Notes under the pieces: generated by a model
What the model was told of the DNA's origin: nothing
What the model saw: the letters and a program-made list of their open reading frames with translations, nothing else
The model's database searches: none
DNA from: Promethearchaeia archaeon
GTDB lineage: Archaea > Asgardarchaeota > Lokiarchaeia > Sigyniarchaeales > SOKP01
Assembly: GCA_046497275.1 (NCBI GenBank)
Contig: JAWOFX010000186.1
Span: 1 to 32,000, forward strand
Direction: 5' to 3'
DNA: 32,000 nucleotides
Shown here: positions 2,938 to 7,762 of the stretch, piece after piece
Layout: each line of letters opens with the position of its first letter
Numbering within the stretch: the first letter of the stretch is position 1
Position numbers and translations under genes: made by a program

Positions 2938-3095
2938 ATATAATAACCAAATTGAATTTTTATGTATAAGAAAAATTACTAATAAATAAGGATAATTATT
3001 CATCTTAATAAGGGATTTGAAAAAAATATTTTTAGTTTCTTGACTTTATTCCAAGAGAACCTTGTATATTTATATAAATTTAAGTATTCCAGAAT

Positions 3096-3100
3096 GAGGT
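3096..3100 (+). promoter_or_regulatory. Shine-Dalgarno-like GAGGT upstream of ATA 3108
   Basis: Same motif and same 7-nt spacing as the GAGGT before the mvhD ATG (11932-11936). Confidence 0.55.
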
Positions 3101-3107
3101 AATAAAA

Positions 3108-3878
3108 ATAAAAAAACTAACTTTAGAAGAAGTAAATAAACTGCTATCTTATTGGAGTAATCATAATAACGAACATAAAAATGATATTAAAAAATGGATT
3201 TCTCGAATTAAACCTTCCCTATCTAAGGAATTTATAAACAAATTAGAAAAAGTAATTGAATTATTTGAAGATATGGATGAAATTTTTGAATCTATAAAAT
3301 ATAATGTTGAAAATAGCGCTAAAGAAAGAAATTTAGAAATAAAGAAACCACAAGAAATAGAACACAGAAAAAAAGAAGAAAACAAGTCAGAAAAATTTAA
3401 ATTAAAAAAGATTGGAACGATTCACACGCCATATATAGATACTGCTCCCTATCAACCTGTCAAAGAGGATCAAGCGGAATTTAAAATTACTGTGGATCCT
3501 CAATATATTGAAAGTCTTCATAAACTTGACAAATTTCGCTATATATACGTGCTTTATTATATTCATCTTGTTTCGCGAGAAATTAATGATATCGTTTCAC
3601 CTCCTTGGACAGGTGGAGCTGAGGTTGGAGCTTTTGCTAGCAGATCTCCTTTACGCCCGAATTTGATAGGATTAAGCGTAGTACAATTAAAAAAGATCGA
3701 GGGTAATAATATTTTCATAAGTTCAATAGATTGTTTTGATGGTACTCCTTTGCTTGATATTAAACCTTATATTAAAGATTTAGATTCTAAATCTGATGCG
3801 AATTATGGATGGATTGAGGATTTAGATGGATATGAACATCTTCTTCTACATATAAAGGGAATTCCGCATGATTATTAA
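3108..3878 (+). CDS. trmO: TrmO/TsaA-like SAM-binding methyltransferase with N-terminal His-rich helical extension (proposed ATA start, 256 aa)
   Basis: IGTIHTPY, GAFASRSPLRPNLIGLS and DCFDGTPLLDIKPY are TsaA motifs. The frame is open 55 codons upstream of the ATG at 3273, with GAGGT 7 nt before the ATA at 3108. Family call is firm; start codon is inferred. Confidence 0.8.
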   Translation: MKKLTLEEVNKLLSYWSNHNNEHKNDIKKWISRIKPSLSKEFINKLEKVIELFEDMDEIFESIKYNVENSAKERNLEIKKPQEIEHRKKEENKSEKFKLKKIGTIHTPYIDTAPYQPVKEDQAEFKITVDPQYIESLHKLDKFRYIYVLYYIHLVSREINDIVSPPWTGGAEVGAFASRSPLRPNLIGLSVVQLKKIEGNNIFISSIDCFDGTPLLDIKPYIKDLDSKSDANYGWIEDLDGYEHLLLHIKGIPHDY

Positions 3879-3907: not shown

Positions 3908-4453
3908 TCATTTTGTTTTATTTCTGAAGAAGTCCAATAGTTCTTCCATCCAATCTGCTAATTCCACGTTAGAAGGAGAATCGTAAGAAGGATGGTGAAA
4001 TTTTATATCGATTATTGGACTTCTATCAAGAGCATCTAATCCTATTACTTTTAATACCCTGCCATCTCTTTCTAAAAGTTCTACAGTTGTAGAACATATT
4101 GGATTAGGTCTAATAGGGCTTCTTGTAGCAAATACTCCAACCATAGGAAACTCGTTTTTTCCTGCGGGATGAACTTTGTAGACTGAGCGAGCTTCTTCAC
4201 CAACAGTATGGGACCAATATAGAACTATAATATGAGAAAAATCTTCTATCCCTTCTAAACACTCTTCATATGTTTCATAGATAATAAGTTCAGATATCTG
4301 ATCTTTACCGGTTTTTGACCTGGATAAGATATCTTCATCAAGTTTTAGATCGCGATTTTGATATTTAAGAGAAGCTTCTCTATAATTGCTTCTCACTATA
4401 CCTATGGGTTTAATTACAAAATTTTCTACATTCTCCTCTTTATTTTTAGACAT
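3908..4453 (-). CDS. trmO: Second TrmO/TsaA-like methyltransferase
   Basis: IKPIGIVRS, LEGIEDFSHIIVLYW, GVFATRSPIRPNPI, LDALDRSPIIDIK. Confidence 0.85.
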   Translation of the reverse strand: MSKNKEENVENFVIKPIGIVRSNYREASLKYQNRDLKLDEDILSRSKTGKDQISELIIYETYEECLEGIEDFSHIIVLYWSHTVGEEARSVYKVHPAGKNEFPMVGVFATRSPIRPNPICSTTVELLERDGRVLKVIGLDALDRSPIIDIKFHHPSYDSPSNVELADWMEELLDFFRNKTK

Positions 4454-4498: not shown

Positions 4499-5035
4499 TT
4501 ATTCAGATTTTTTTCTAAAATTTAACAAAATTCCTTTTTCTATGTGGTTTTCATGAACAAGTTTTCTATTATATTCACTTTCTAAAATAAACCCCATTTT
4601 TTGCATCGTTTTTTTAAAGCATTCCACGCCATTTGGGCTGGTATGAGTGGGAAACACAGAAATTAAAGAATTTTCCTTTGCTAATTTCTTCATATCCTCA
4701 AATAACTTAACAGTTTTCGCTTCTTTTGCCCCAAAATACCAGAAAATATCATAAAAAAGCATGATATCTACCTTTTTTGGTAGAGAAATTCCTGATTCTA
4801 CATCTTCTTCGATAATTTCTATATTCTGCAAGTTTTTTTCTTTGATTTTCTTTTTTAAATCATCTAGTTTACTACTATTCCGATCGACCGCAAAAACTTT
4901 ACCATTAATCCCAACTAACTCTCCAGCAGGAATTGTGTAAGTACCATTACCACAACAACAATCCAAAACCCATTGGTCTTTAGAAATTCCTACATCTTTT
5001 AGAGTTTGTATAGCATATTTTTTTAAATCGTCCAT
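4499..5035 (-). CDS. Class I SAM-dependent methyltransferase
   Basis: Motif I variant VLDCCCGNG, then GKVFAVD and an acidic post-II region. Confidence 0.8.
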   Translation of the reverse strand: MDDLKKYAIQTLKDVGISKDQWVLDCCCGNGTYTIPAGELVGINGKVFAVDRNSSKLDDLKKKIKEKNLQNIEIIEEDVESGISLPKKVDIMLFYDIFWYFGAKEAKTVKLFEDMKKLAKENSLISVFPTHTSPNGVECFKKTMQKMGFILESEYNRKLVHENHIEKGILLNFRKKSE

Positions 5036-5257
5036 TTTTTAAATTTTTTTAACAAAAATCTCCTTAATATGTAGCAATCTCAAATCTAAATTTATAAACT
5101 AAATTCAAGATTTCTTCTAAGCCTAGTAAGGAATAGAATCCTTAATATTCTTTTTTTAAATTATTTCTTCAAAATTACAAAAATGTAAAAGGTATTTATA
5201 TAAAGGAAAGATTTAAAATTTCAAGTAAGAATTTTTTATAATTTTTGGTCTTATATT

Positions 5258-5722
5258 GTGGTATTTGTGAAGTTTCCAGAAATTACGGGGATGGCTTTAA
5301 ATAATATTCCATTTACTATCCCAAATGATTTAGGGAGTAAACTAAATATTTTAATTCTCCCATGTGGAAAATCTAACAAATTAAATTTGGAAAGATGGAT
5401 ATCCTTCATGGAAACCTTGATTTCTGATATAAATTTCTTGGATTATTACCAAATTCATATCTATAATAAAAAACTTGCAGTTTTGAGAAGATATATGAGT
5501 AGGAGAGCACGAAGACGTATTCTAAATAGAAATATTAACAGAATAATTAATTTTTACCATGATCTAAATACTTTTAAAAATTCTCTCAATCTTGAAAGTT
5601 ACAAAAACGTTTATATCTTTTTGATTAACCAAGAAGGAGATATCCTATGGAGAACCGAAGGTATATACGATCTTGATAAAGCTCAATTATTAAAGCAGAA
5701 AATAATTGAACATATGATCTGA
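5258..5722 (+). CDS. Thioredoxin-like fold protein (ATP10-like family), no CxxC
   Basis: FPEITGxxL...P.D...LNIL and FLINQEGDILWRTEG pattern recalled from ATP10-like proteins; GTG start. Confidence 0.5.
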   Translation: MVFVKFPEITGMALNNIPFTIPNDLGSKLNILILPCGKSNKLNLERWISFMETLISDINFLDYYQIHIYNKKLAVLRRYMSRRARRRILNRNINRIINFYHDLNTFKNSLNLESYKNVYIFLINQEGDILWRTEGIYDLDKAQLLKQKIIEHMI

Positions 5723-5828
5723 ATTCAATGTTTTCTATTAAATTTAGATATTTTCATATAAACTGAAATTTTATTAAGGTTGAAAATTAATTCCAATCAT
5801 AATAAATAATAAATAAAGGTTTAGTAAA

Positions 5829-6866
5829 ATGGGAGATCAAATAGAAATTACAGAATCATCAAAATTATTTAAGGAGGATGGGTCCCTTGTTAAAACAGGA
5901 TGGGCGAGGAAACCATTATTAAAATATAATAAGGAAGATATAGGAAAAAGTTGGTGGAGAATAAAGGAGTGGGATCATTACTCTGTTTTAAATAAAGATT
6001 TTGGATTCCAACTTACTATTGGAGATATTGGATATCTCACTCAAATGAGTTATGTCTGGCTTGATTTCAATAAAAGAGAGCGTGAGGACGTAAGTACCAT
6101 GAAATTTTTTACTAAATCTAAGATATTGCCACTTAGCTCAGTAAAGGATAGTTTAACAGAGTTTCCTACCGATAAATTTAAGGCAACTATAGAAAAAAAA
6201 GGTAATAAAAGAATTCTTACAATTGATGATCCAAATTTCTTAGAAAAAGGAATCAAAGGAACTATTATTCTTGAAGATAAACCAGATTGGGATAATACTG
6301 TTATAGTAACGGGATATGAAAAACCTAAACTATTCTACTATAATCATAAAATCAATATGATGCCTGCTGAAGGAACACTAAAAATTGGTGCACAGGATTA
6401 TACGTTTACACCTGATAAATCATTTGGATTAATGGACTGGGGACGTGGTATCTGGCCATATAACACTCATTGGTTGTGGGGAAGTGCTTGTGGGATGGTT
6501 GATAATATCCCTGTAGCGTTTAATATTGGTTATGGTTTTGGTCAAGTAGGAAGTGAAGAGGGAGCGACACATACGGAAAACATCGTATTTTATAATGGAA
6601 AGGCACATAAACTTGATGAAATTACCTTTCATCATGAGAATCGAGATCCAACAAAACCATGGAAATTCACTAGTAATGATGGGAGATTTAATATGGTATT
6701 AGAACCTCTTATTCCGCATAGAGAGAAACTTAATTTTGGAATTATAAAATTAGATTCATCATTATTGCATGGAGTCTACTCAGGAGATATAATATTAGAT
6801 GATGGAACAAAAATACACATTGAAAATATGCTTGGTCATGCAGAGGATATTTACTGGAAATGGTAA
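5829..6866 (+). CDS. DUF2804-family protein
   Basis: GWARKPL, RIKEWDHY, DWGRGIWPY and HTENIVFYNGKAHKL. Confidence 0.75.
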   Translation: MGDQIEITESSKLFKEDGSLVKTGWARKPLLKYNKEDIGKSWWRIKEWDHYSVLNKDFGFQLTIGDIGYLTQMSYVWLDFNKREREDVSTMKFFTKSKILPLSSVKDSLTEFPTDKFKATIEKKGNKRILTIDDPNFLEKGIKGTIILEDKPDWDNTVIVTGYEKPKLFYYNHKINMMPAEGTLKIGAQDYTFTPDKSFGLMDWGRGIWPYNTHWLWGSACGMVDNIPVAFNIGYGFGQVGSEEGATHTENIVFYNGKAHKLDEITFHHENRDPTKPWKFTSNDGRFNMVLEPLIPHREKLNFGIIKLDSSLLHGVYSGDIILDDGTKIHIENMLGHAEDIYWKW

Positions 6867-6895
6867 AAAAAAAATAAGATAAGATTTATTTAAAT

Positions 6896-7762
6896 TTATA
6901 TACTTCCAAAGAAATAAGCCACAATTACAAAAAACATCCCTATTCTCAACAGAATAAATACTTTCCCATTATATTTTTCTTCGAAATCGTATACCAAATT
7001 TAATATAACTGAAATGACTATGAGAATCATTGCGATTAGCATTGGGAACAAATAAAGAAAATAATTATATATTCCAGTTACAAATGGGATTAAAAGAAAC
7101 AAGATAGTTAGAAACTGTAGTATCAATACTATTTTCTGGGAAACATTGAGACCAAAAATATCAGCAAAGAATCGATATTCTTCATTATTACTTCTCTCTT
7201 GAGCAGATCTTTTACAGCTTTTTAAAATATCTTTCGAGAATTGAAGAGTCAAAACACCAAAAAAGAAGAAATAAAGATATAATGGAATCGAAATATCATT
7301 AAGTATAGCACCAAATATTAATCCAAATGAAACCGCAAAGCCAATATAAATTATCATTAAAATGCTTTTATTTTCCCATTCATCTCCGAAAAAACAAGAA
7401 AAATATAATATTATCCCAATAATTCCTAAAAGGATTAATAATATAATACTTCTCCCATAATAAAACACAAAAAACGATAAAATCCCATACGATATGAGAA
7501 AAAAAACTATGGATACTGTCAATACGATACTCTTTTTAGACAATTTTCTCTCCTTTGTGTCTTGAGGCAGTTTTAGATACAAGACAAGTAGCATCCCTGC
7601 AACAATTACTAGAAAATATATTATTGGTCCAAATACTAGGTTATCGATGAACCAATTATATCCAACATTAAATCGGCTATTTAATAAACCTAGAATAAGG
7701 AAAATTGTTCCTTTAAACCAATTAATTAATTGATATCTTCCGACAAACGCTTTAATTTTAAT
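6896..7762 (-). CDS. UbiA/DGGGP-synthase-like polytopic membrane protein lacking the Asp-rich motifs (proposed ATT start, 288 aa)
   Basis: About 8-9 hydrophobic helices. The frame is open 56 codons upstream of the ATG at 7594 (IKIKAF...GLLNSR...VAGM), with AGGTGA 6 nt before the ATT at 7762. KDILKSC aligns with the second UbiA motif position. Confidence 0.55.
   Translation of the reverse strand: MKIKAFVGRYQLINWFKGTIFLILGLLNSRFNVGYNWFIDNLVFGPIIYFLVIVAGMLLVLYLKLPQDTKERKLSKKSIVLTVSIVFFLISYGILSFFVFYYGRSIILLILLGIIGIILYFSCFFGDEWENKSILMIIYIGFAVSFGLIFGAILNDISIPLYLYFFFFGVLTLQFSKDILKSCKRSAQERSNNEEYRFFADIFGLNVSQKIVLILQFLTILFLLIPFVTGIYNYFLYLFPMLIAMILIVISVILNLVYDFEEKYNGKVFILLRIGMFFVIVAYFFGSI

Follow-up and report, generated by a model that had tools for sequence, protein, structure and literature searches.

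Where does translation of a TrmO-like gene begin, and what protein does the gene make? The question is raised by a stretch of 32,000 nt from an uncultured Promethearchaeia archaeon represented by a metagenome-assembled genome (contig JAWOFX010000186.1 of assembly GCA_046497275.1), which at its full length is called the window. Its genome is referred to as G000, and other G numbers denote relatives among Promethearchaeota genomes. Databases contain solely a 201-residue form of the product, which begins at ATG 3273..3275 on the forward strand; a word-indexed protein search with the extended protein matched only this truncated self, a result that is uninformative on the absence of relatives. The frame is open from position 3084, directly behind an in-frame TAA (3081..3083), and the 63 codons between this stop and ATG 3273 include no ATG, GTG or TTG. 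An original prediction held that 55 of these codons, counted from an ATA at 3108 and encoding the peptide IKKLTLEEVNKLLSYWSNHNNEHKNDIKKW..., are translated as a domain fused to TrmO, with GAGGT 7 nt upstream; re-reading the frame confirmed the open codons, the lack of canonical starts, the peptide and the spacing. The explanation that we favor, with a probability of about 0.7, is an ATA-started fusion protein of 256 residues that is CooJ-like at its N-terminus and TrmO-like in its barrel. Its coding sequence would occupy 3108..3878 (+), with 256 codons and a stop (TAA 3876-3878), and would comprise a CooJ-like/DUF8180 hairpin, a linker, a TrmO-family barrel and a His tail.

The extension is conserved as protein. 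Six-frame searches, first of 40 relatives and later of 400 Promethearchaeota genomes, identified fused orthologs in 14 of the 400; the matches begin within the first extension residues, reach the C-terminus and show 50–62% identity. In an alignment of eight orthologs (A1), the identity is 48–60% over the entire length, and seven extension residues (Trp16, His19, Asn20, His23, Trp30, Ile34 and Leu46) are invariant; the first five of these are invariant in alignment A2 as well. Pairwise ratios of nonsynonymous to synonymous substitution (dN/dS) in the extension range from 0.22 to 0.68, and codon position 2 varies least. An exhaustive HMMER profile search with the N-terminal domain collected 736 representative clusters, mostly proteins of 63–130 residues, which provides the homologs that the original prediction had named as the first thing to look for. 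Open stretches of this kind are also scarce: at least 60 startless codons ahead of the first canonical start were found in only 29 of 2825 long open reading frames (ORFs) of G000 (1%).

These observations bear directly on the public gene call, according to which translation starts at ATG 3273 and the upstream 55–63 codons are an untranslated leader whose open frame is accidental. In favor of this call, no canonical start precedes ATG 3273 in the frame, its 201-residue product is the one on record, and in AT-rich coding DNA a chance absence of ATG, GTG and TTG from 60 codons has a probability of a few per cent. However, a leader open by chance is difficult to reconcile with a stretch whose protein sequence is retained in 14 genomes, with residues that never vary and dN/dS under 1, and which belongs to a family of 736 clusters. 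ATG 3273 has no preceding Shine-Dalgarno (SD) motif, the residue aligned with its Met is Ile in two orthologs (G006 and G037), and a start at this codon would leave approximately 40 residues of half a hairpin plus linker ahead of the barrel. Because the extension is conserved as protein and Met 3273 is neither conserved nor SD-led, the 201-residue product is considered truncated and this Met internal; the public call has a very small chance of being right. Judged by the comparison of sequences, the 3108–3272 extension is coding.

Within the extended frame, translation most likely starts at ATA 3108..3110. This codon lies 7 nt behind GAGGT (3096..3100, +). The 16S rRNA 3´ end of G000 is GGATCACCTCCT, which identifies GAGGT as a true anti-SD match, and GAGGTaAT agrees with GAGGTGAT at seven of eight bases. 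Of 70 GAGGT-to-ATG distances in G000, 17 equal 7 nt, the most frequent value, and 48 fall within 6–9 nt. The original prediction had pointed to ATG at the 3108-equivalent codon of orthologs as a sign of initiation there, and six orthologs indeed carry ATG at or beside this site (G006, G037, G030, G003, G029 and G259). In G006 and G037 the ATG occupies the same alignment column as ATA 3108, so that M-N-D-L aligns with I-K-K-L; in the remaining four, the start lies 0–5 codons upstream of the ATA position. The other eight (G000, G013, G020, G277, G166, G194, G236 and G204), from at least five genera in two families, carry ATA in the shared context (G)AGGT-N7-ATA, with GAGGT or AGGTG as the SD motif. 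An in-frame TGA immediately precedes the ATA in G236 and G204, and the start in these two genomes therefore cannot lie further upstream. The next canonical codon in G236 falls behind the conserved Trp of the motif, and G204 has a TTG four codons ahead of this Trp, within the conserved KLLSFW segment. In the other ATA orthologs, the first canonical codon is located at or behind the conserved W-x2-H-N motif. The locus consequently presents the features of SD-led non-AUG (AUH) initiation: canonical SD spacing, no canonical start that gives the conserved N-terminus, and orthologs with ATG.

Two other starting points were considered and rejected. One is the out-of-frame ATG 3094, from which the gene's frame would be reached by reinitiation or a frameshift; the other is a second in-frame ATA at 3102. 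ATG 3094 overlaps the SD motif and a similar out-of-frame ATG is found in G236 and G204, but it is missing in G013, G020, G277, G166 and G194. ATA 3102 sits 1 nt from GAGGT, which is too close to the SD, and in G236 and G204 the stop precedes the ATA. Initiation at either site is extremely improbable. The overlapping ATG opens an out-of-frame mini-ORF, ATG-AGG-TAA (window 3094-3102), and an out-of-frame ATG overlaps the SD in the same manner at the ATT start of a UbiA-like gene in the window (7768 region).

A further reading treats the ATA as a lost start codon (ATG to ATA), so that the long form is dead or made in traces and the gene is heading to a short form or a pseudogene. ATA initiates poorly in the bacteria examined in this respect, as established for E. 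coli, and other families contain short orthologs devoid of the N-domain. However, the short orthologs branch outside the fused clade and are therefore not derived from the fused form. Fused forms are monophyletic (support 99/98); the order inside the clade is not resolved, and thus the number of ATG/ATA switches is not countable. The ATA-bearing genomes, spread over their genera and two families, retain an intact and constrained N-domain behind a conserved SD; neither relaxed constraint (dN/dS near 1) nor frame disruption was observed in the N-domain of ATA orthologs; and the lineage uses ATH starts for core enzymes. Start loss is thus quite improbable. Coding status and start position together are well supported, and we hold both with high confidence. 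With regard to the spread of the gene, the fused orthologs of G013, G277, G194, G236 and G204, which belong to three genera (g8, g2 and g11), are nearly identical (branches of 0.02–0.1), and in genomes of G000's own genus the gene is more divergent or absent. Present in 14 of 400 genomes, the gene is patchily distributed, which suggests that it spread laterally among Lokiarchaeia.

Near-cognate initiation was also examined at the scale of the genome, by counting the codons behind SD motifs within startless open stretches upstream of first canonical starts in G000. ATT follows 5-mer SD matches in 48 of 1763 cases against a background of 1.4% (odds ratio (OR) 2.2, p 6e-6), and it is more strongly enriched behind 6-mer matches (OR 4.0, p 2e-6). 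It is the sole common codon enriched behind the SD; CTG and ACG are weakly enriched. In seven candidate genes the ATT lies 5–8 nt behind the SD: a short-chain dehydrogenase/reductase (C156:40283), a thiamine pyrophosphate (TPP) enzyme (C98:8271), a thiolase (C20:10126), an ABC ATPase (C136:23802, –), a DUF6513/pterin-binding protein (C111:14193, –), a winged helix-turn-helix (wHTH) regulator (C172:42780) and a GDPD protein (C69:5354, –). A Pfam check placed the beginning of the domain upstream of any canonical start in six of the seven. Position 1 of Thiolase_N falls at residue 13 of a frame in which residue 48 is the first with a canonical codon; position 1 of ABC_tran and of GDPD falls at residues 20 and 6, respectively; positions 2-86 of DUF6513 cover residues 2-86; and adh_short and an N-terminal wHTH domain likewise begin upstream of canonical starts. 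The domain of the TPP enzyme (L114) begins only 6 residues ahead of the first canonical codon and adds little. Domain boundaries and codon counts thus indicate that G000 uses ATT starts behind SD motifs for a minority of genes, at least seven in number.

Several individual genes illustrate the same pattern. For the UbiA-like paralog at window 6899-7762 (–), ATT 7762-7760 is the most likely start, with AGGTGAT 5 nt upstream, an in-frame TGA two codons ahead of the ATT and the first canonical start 56 codons downstream. A short TrmO-like ortholog (G038:C1:115844-116332) has no canonical start for 113 codons and carries AGGTGA-N6-ATT, a likely ATT start; a stand-alone hairpin gene in G010:C100 has GTGAT-N2-ATT right after a stop, again a likely ATT start. 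In the aIF1/SUI1 gene of G000 (C118:66902-67234, +), the first canonical start (TTG, codon 15) lies inside the N-terminal CPVCG...CVC zinc knuckle. The ATT at codon 3 seems the likely start of this gene, in which case the start-codon proofreading factor would itself be near-cognate-started.

Non-AUG starts of this type have known bacterial counterparts. The infC (IF3) and pcnB genes have SD-led AUU starts, and NCBI table 11 lists ATT, ATC and ATA as rare initiators. The window gene resembles them in having a third-position near-cognate codon at canonical spacing from a good SD, and ATG in its orthologs. In contrast, the present organism is an archaeon with eukaryote-type initiation factors (aIF1, aIF2), the codon is ATA instead of ATT and is conserved across genera, and an autoregulatory logic is not evident. 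No description of non-AUG starts in Asgard or other archaea was found in the literature.

The conserved extension opens a small helical domain. This domain, residues 1-71 (3108..3320, +), is supported by an AlphaFold2 model built from a 103-sequence alignment (pLDDT, the confidence score of the model, 94.7), by the profile search and by dN/dS. The predicted helices span residues 6-37 and 40-70, in agreement with the helical character assigned by the original prediction, and form a hairpin. The first helix contains the motif Y15-W16-x2-H19-N20-x2-H23 (3150..3176, +), the counterpart of the HWxxHxxxH motif of CooJ, followed by Trp30 (3195..3197, +), which is invariant in both alignments. The label His-rich in the original prediction fits the relatives better than the domain itself: the latter has just three His residues (His19, His23 and His26, at 3162, 3174 and 3183), of which His19 and His23 alone are invariant, and His-rich tracts occur in relatives. 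Among the best 150 of the 736 relatives, 102 have HWxxHxxxH and 34 have YWxxHxxxH, and tracts with at least 6 His in 20 residues were observed in 41, either N- or C-terminal to the motif. One family member, from an Omnitrophota metagenome-assembled genome, is fused to the Ni-binding CooT domain (PF10133, 6.8e-12), and another carries a zinc-ribbon and a His/Glu-rich tract.

No Pfam or NCBIfam family was found for the N-domain, in a Pfam release that lacked the PF26551 model; weak matches to Spectrin_5, Exonuc_VII_S and the SelU C-terminal region (14.5 bits) are coiled-coil noise. The nearest clusters in the ESM Atlas are all DUF8180 (PF26551, Pfam 38.1), with scores of 0.93 for a bacterial member and 0.85 for the window domain. 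This assignment of the family to DUF8180 is a lead only, and no paper mentioning DUF8180 was found.

The characterized protein with which the family can be compared is CooJ, a Ni-binding accessory protein of CO dehydrogenase (CODH), known from Rhodospirillum rubrum (PDB 6HK5), Clostridium pasteurianum BC1 and Shewanella fodinae. The metal site of this helical protein (PDB 6HK5) is HWXXHXXXH, its His-rich region may occupy either terminus, and it is hard to recognize by sequence (bioRxiv 10.64898/2026.03.10.710785). The window domain is predicted to be a small helical hairpin, as CooJ is; the Ni site of CooJ lies on helix 1, and conservation is poor outside the motif. The hairpin family shares with CooJ the motif, His-rich tracts at either end, a fusion to CooT and adjacency to CODH.

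The last point rests on stand-alone copies of the hairpin. Each Asgard genome looked at has a stand-alone copy of 68 residues with a full HWxEHNxSH motif. In a survey based on an alignment of Asgard stand-alone copies (A4), for which 80 Promethearchaeota loci were fetched, the copy lies directly downstream of, and co-directional with, a 781-residue Prismane/CODH-family gene of CdhA size in 59 of 70 Promethearchaeota loci. The two genes are separated by 4.4 kb in G000, where contig C46 carries the stand-alone copy at 543-752 (–) and the CODH gene at 5166-7533 (+). The small W..HN..H..W proteins near Ni/Co genes that the original prediction mentioned thus correspond to a real family, which has the CooJ motif, poly-His tails, one CooT fusion and the CODH adjacency in Asgards. 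With respect to these loci, RagA/Arf-like GTPases, a VWA-RING protein and an MtrH-like gene are conserved flanks, and the 68-residue protein is annotated only as hypothetical. The CdhA-like gene of G000 matches in two pieces in different frames (C46:5166-5372, residues 4-72; 5404-7533, residues 73-781), which could be a frameshift, an assembly error or recoding.

The C-terminal part of the protein is separated from the hairpin by a Lys/Glu-rich linker (3321..3392, +), variable in length and sequence, with pLDDT below 50 in the full-length model and gapped columns in A1. It is followed by a β-barrel of the TrmO family (UPF0066, class VIII S-adenosylmethionine (AdoMet)-dependent methyltransferases; 3393..3800, +), which matches Pfam TrmO_N (PF01980, 1.5e-33), TIGR00104 (120.5 bits against a cut-off of 93.25) and AF0241 (2nv4, 2e-21). 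The full-length AlphaFold2 model, built from eight sequences, is poor for the barrel (pLDDT 51). The four AdoMet ligands of AF0241 (Gln22, Arg82, Asp111 and Lys122) align as Gln, Arg, Asp and Lys and are invariant in A1. The same barrel family and the same four ligands are shared with TrmO/YaeB/TsaA of E. coli and with AF0241 (PDB 2NV4). Neither a DPRxxY motif nor a TrmO_C match was found in the protein, which ends 20 residues past the DANYGW segment in ...YEHLLLHIKGIPHDY. The DPRxxY C-terminal domain is needed for the formation of m6t6A (the methylated form of the tRNA nucleoside t6A) by E. coli TrmO and is absent from archaeal YaeB homologs (PMC4132733). In its lack of this domain, and in the presence of multiple paralogs per genome (6 matches in G000), the window protein resembles archaeal YaeB. 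Since the domain needed for m6t6A is missing, the protein is regarded as TrmO-like and not as TrmO, and the SAM-binding TrmO barrel of the original prediction stands as to family and AdoMet ligands, without the domain for TrmO's known reaction. m6t6A has never been detected in archaea, and the archaeal paralogs may methylate something else (Kimura et al., PMC4132733); the substrate is therefore probably different from that of TrmO.

The protein differs from TrmO and AF0241 by its additions at both ends, the N-terminal CooJ-like hairpin and a C-terminal HxxxHx5HDY tail. The tail, YEHLLLHIKGIPHDY (3831..3875, +), contains the invariant residues His244, His248 and His254, and the subfamily's invariant tail reads E-H-L-L-L-H-I-K-G-I-P-H-D-Y. 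Short His-tailed forms branch outside the fused clade, indicating that a barrel which already had the His tail acquired the hairpin in a single event. Hairpins fused to TrmO_N are also found elsewhere: the metagenome proteins P0057 and P0145 join the hairpin to TrmO_N barrels of a different subtype, and the two domains may have been joined more than once. The fusions outside the Asgard clade (P0057, P0145 and P0123) have a hairpin of the stand-alone type, whose loop contains G, and they lack the His tail; the linker of P0145 is His-rich.

The fusion protein that we favor could work as follows. GAGGT, 7 nt upstream, would place initiation at ATA 3108, and the initiator tRNA (Met-tRNAi) presumably reads ATA as a third-position near-cognate codon, in keeping with the minority ATT/ATA initiation of this Lokiarchaeal lineage. 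The product would have four parts, namely the DUF8180/CooJ-like hairpin, a flexible charged linker, a barrel with an intact AdoMet pocket and the H-x3-H-x5-H-D-Y tail. His19 and His23 are the candidate metal ligands of the hairpin, and Tyr15 stands where the motif has its first His. Barrels of the TrmO family occur obligately as dimers, the AdoMet pocket of each subunit being completed by Lys122 from the other (PMC4132733). CooJ hairpins are homodimeric as well, and the fused hairpins probably pair as a four-helix bundle. Such a pair, with two sets of His19 and His23 together with Tyr15, could hold one divalent metal per dimer. The metal could stabilize or orient the barrel dimer, or it could pass to a site that involves the His tail; metal status would thereby be tied to how a class VIII AdoMet-dependent transferase assembles or acts, and the substrate of this transferase would not be tRNA t6A.

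A number of observations count against this explanation. The support for ATA initiation comes from sequence comparison, and since ATA is not enriched behind SD motifs genome-wide in G000 (OR 0.66–1.1), this gene would be a rare ATA start in a set dominated by ATT. Among the 14 fused orthologs, 13 have Tyr where the motif begins with His, G037 alone keeping His, and the fused domain has no poly-His tract. Compared with CooJ, the window domain (Y-W-S-N-H-N-N-E-H) keeps the second and third His but has Tyr as the first; the full HWxxHxxxH is present in the G037 ortholog and in the stand-alone paralog of G000. The fused protein also lacks a His-rich region at either end and has an enzyme-like barrel attached, and its gene is not near CODH, cooC, cooT or Ni-transport genes. 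The His tail is present in the hairpin-less short orthologs G035, G032, G025, G038 and G039, so that hairpin and tail need not form one site.

Similarity to the solved CooJ structure is not significant either. PDB sequence searches with the N-domain and its family returned nothing significant, in searches where natural His tails attract His-tagged entries; 6hk5_B was matched at E 0.98 with a 136-sequence profile, colinear over 60 residues, and at E 1.2 with a single member. Foldseek and VIA-align with the model of the N-domain returned generic hairpins only (EsxA/B, ROP variants, designed bundles and PadR C-terminal helices), and 6HK5 was absent among the matches listed. Fold searches cannot discriminate a helical hairpin, and they neither support nor exclude CooJ. 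The hairpin family is accordingly CooJ-like by motif, architecture, fusion partners and context, and its homology to characterized CooJ is plausible but unproven.

The same evidence can be read in another manner, in which the long ATA-started protein is real and the hairpin is a coiled-coil dimerization or docking module that has no metal site. The Tyr in place of the first His and the missing poly-His tract agree with such a module, as do the fold matches to generic hairpins and the requirement of TrmO barrels for dimerization (PMC4132733). However, His19, Asn20 and His23 are invariant in both fused and stand-alone forms amid neighboring surface residues that vary, YWxxHxxxH is common among the best 150 relatives (34 of them), and the subfamily keeps its three-His C-terminal tail. 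A module devoid of metal is an unlikely but serious alternative. Metal binding by the CooJ-like hairpin of the fusion protein is, on these analogies, somewhat better than an even bet. Ni(II) is our best guess for the most likely metal, because of the CooJ, CooT and CODH links, and Zn or Co is possible. A regulatory link between metal and AdoMet chemistry is held with less confidence than metal binding itself. The metal-binding or metal-sensing module on a SAM-binding barrel, as put forward in the original prediction, thus gains from the CooJ-like family and the AdoMet ligands; its metal remains deduced, and the first motif His is a Tyr.

Two minus-strand genes follow the fused gene. The first, convergent with it at 3908..4453 (–), encodes a second TrmO-family paralog of 181 residues (Pfam TrmO_N, 6.6e-27), and the next, at 4499..5035 (–), a class I SAM methyltransferase of 178 residues (Pfam Methyltransf_31/25). 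A TrmO paralog adjoins the ortholog in G013 too, where it bears a Zn-ribbon, and a similar methyltransferase lies beside the ortholog in G020. Several neighbors recur around the fused gene: a small 2x[4Fe-4S] ferredoxin, class I SAM methyltransferases of two kinds, a protein with a weak resemblance to DsrE and the second TrmO paralog.

The protein is a combination of known kinds, that is, SD-led near-cognate initiation, a CooJ-type hairpin and a TrmO-family barrel; a CooJ-like/TrmO-like fusion was found described nowhere in the literature. Standard gene callers truncate this protein, which the databases carry in its 201-residue form, and other genes of the lineage, so that public protein sets do not show the N-terminal domain and a protein search cannot reveal the fusion. 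The family-wide ATA start and the many ATT starts, apparently including that of the aIF1 gene, point to relaxed or differently tuned start selection in Asgard archaea. Among prokaryotes, their initiation machinery offers the closest model for that of eukaryotes. Through the hairpin, a large unnamed family (DUF8180) is connected with CooJ-type nickel handling and archaeal CODH, and a metal would be the first functional handle on archaeal TrmO/YaeB paralogs, whose substrates have been a puzzle since 2014. In its strongest form, the proposal is that a Lokiarchaeia clade joined a CooJ-type nickel-binding hairpin to an AdoMet-dependent transferase of class VIII, with a conserved ATA as the start codon for its expression, a tentative and rather doubtful claim as a whole. 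If the hairpin does sense or deliver Ni(II), the protein would be the first enzyme with a nickel chaperone module of the CODH type that controls a TrmO-family AdoMet barrel or supplies it with metal, and the enigmatic archaeal YaeB/TrmO paralogs would gain a metal-linked, non-tRNA function.

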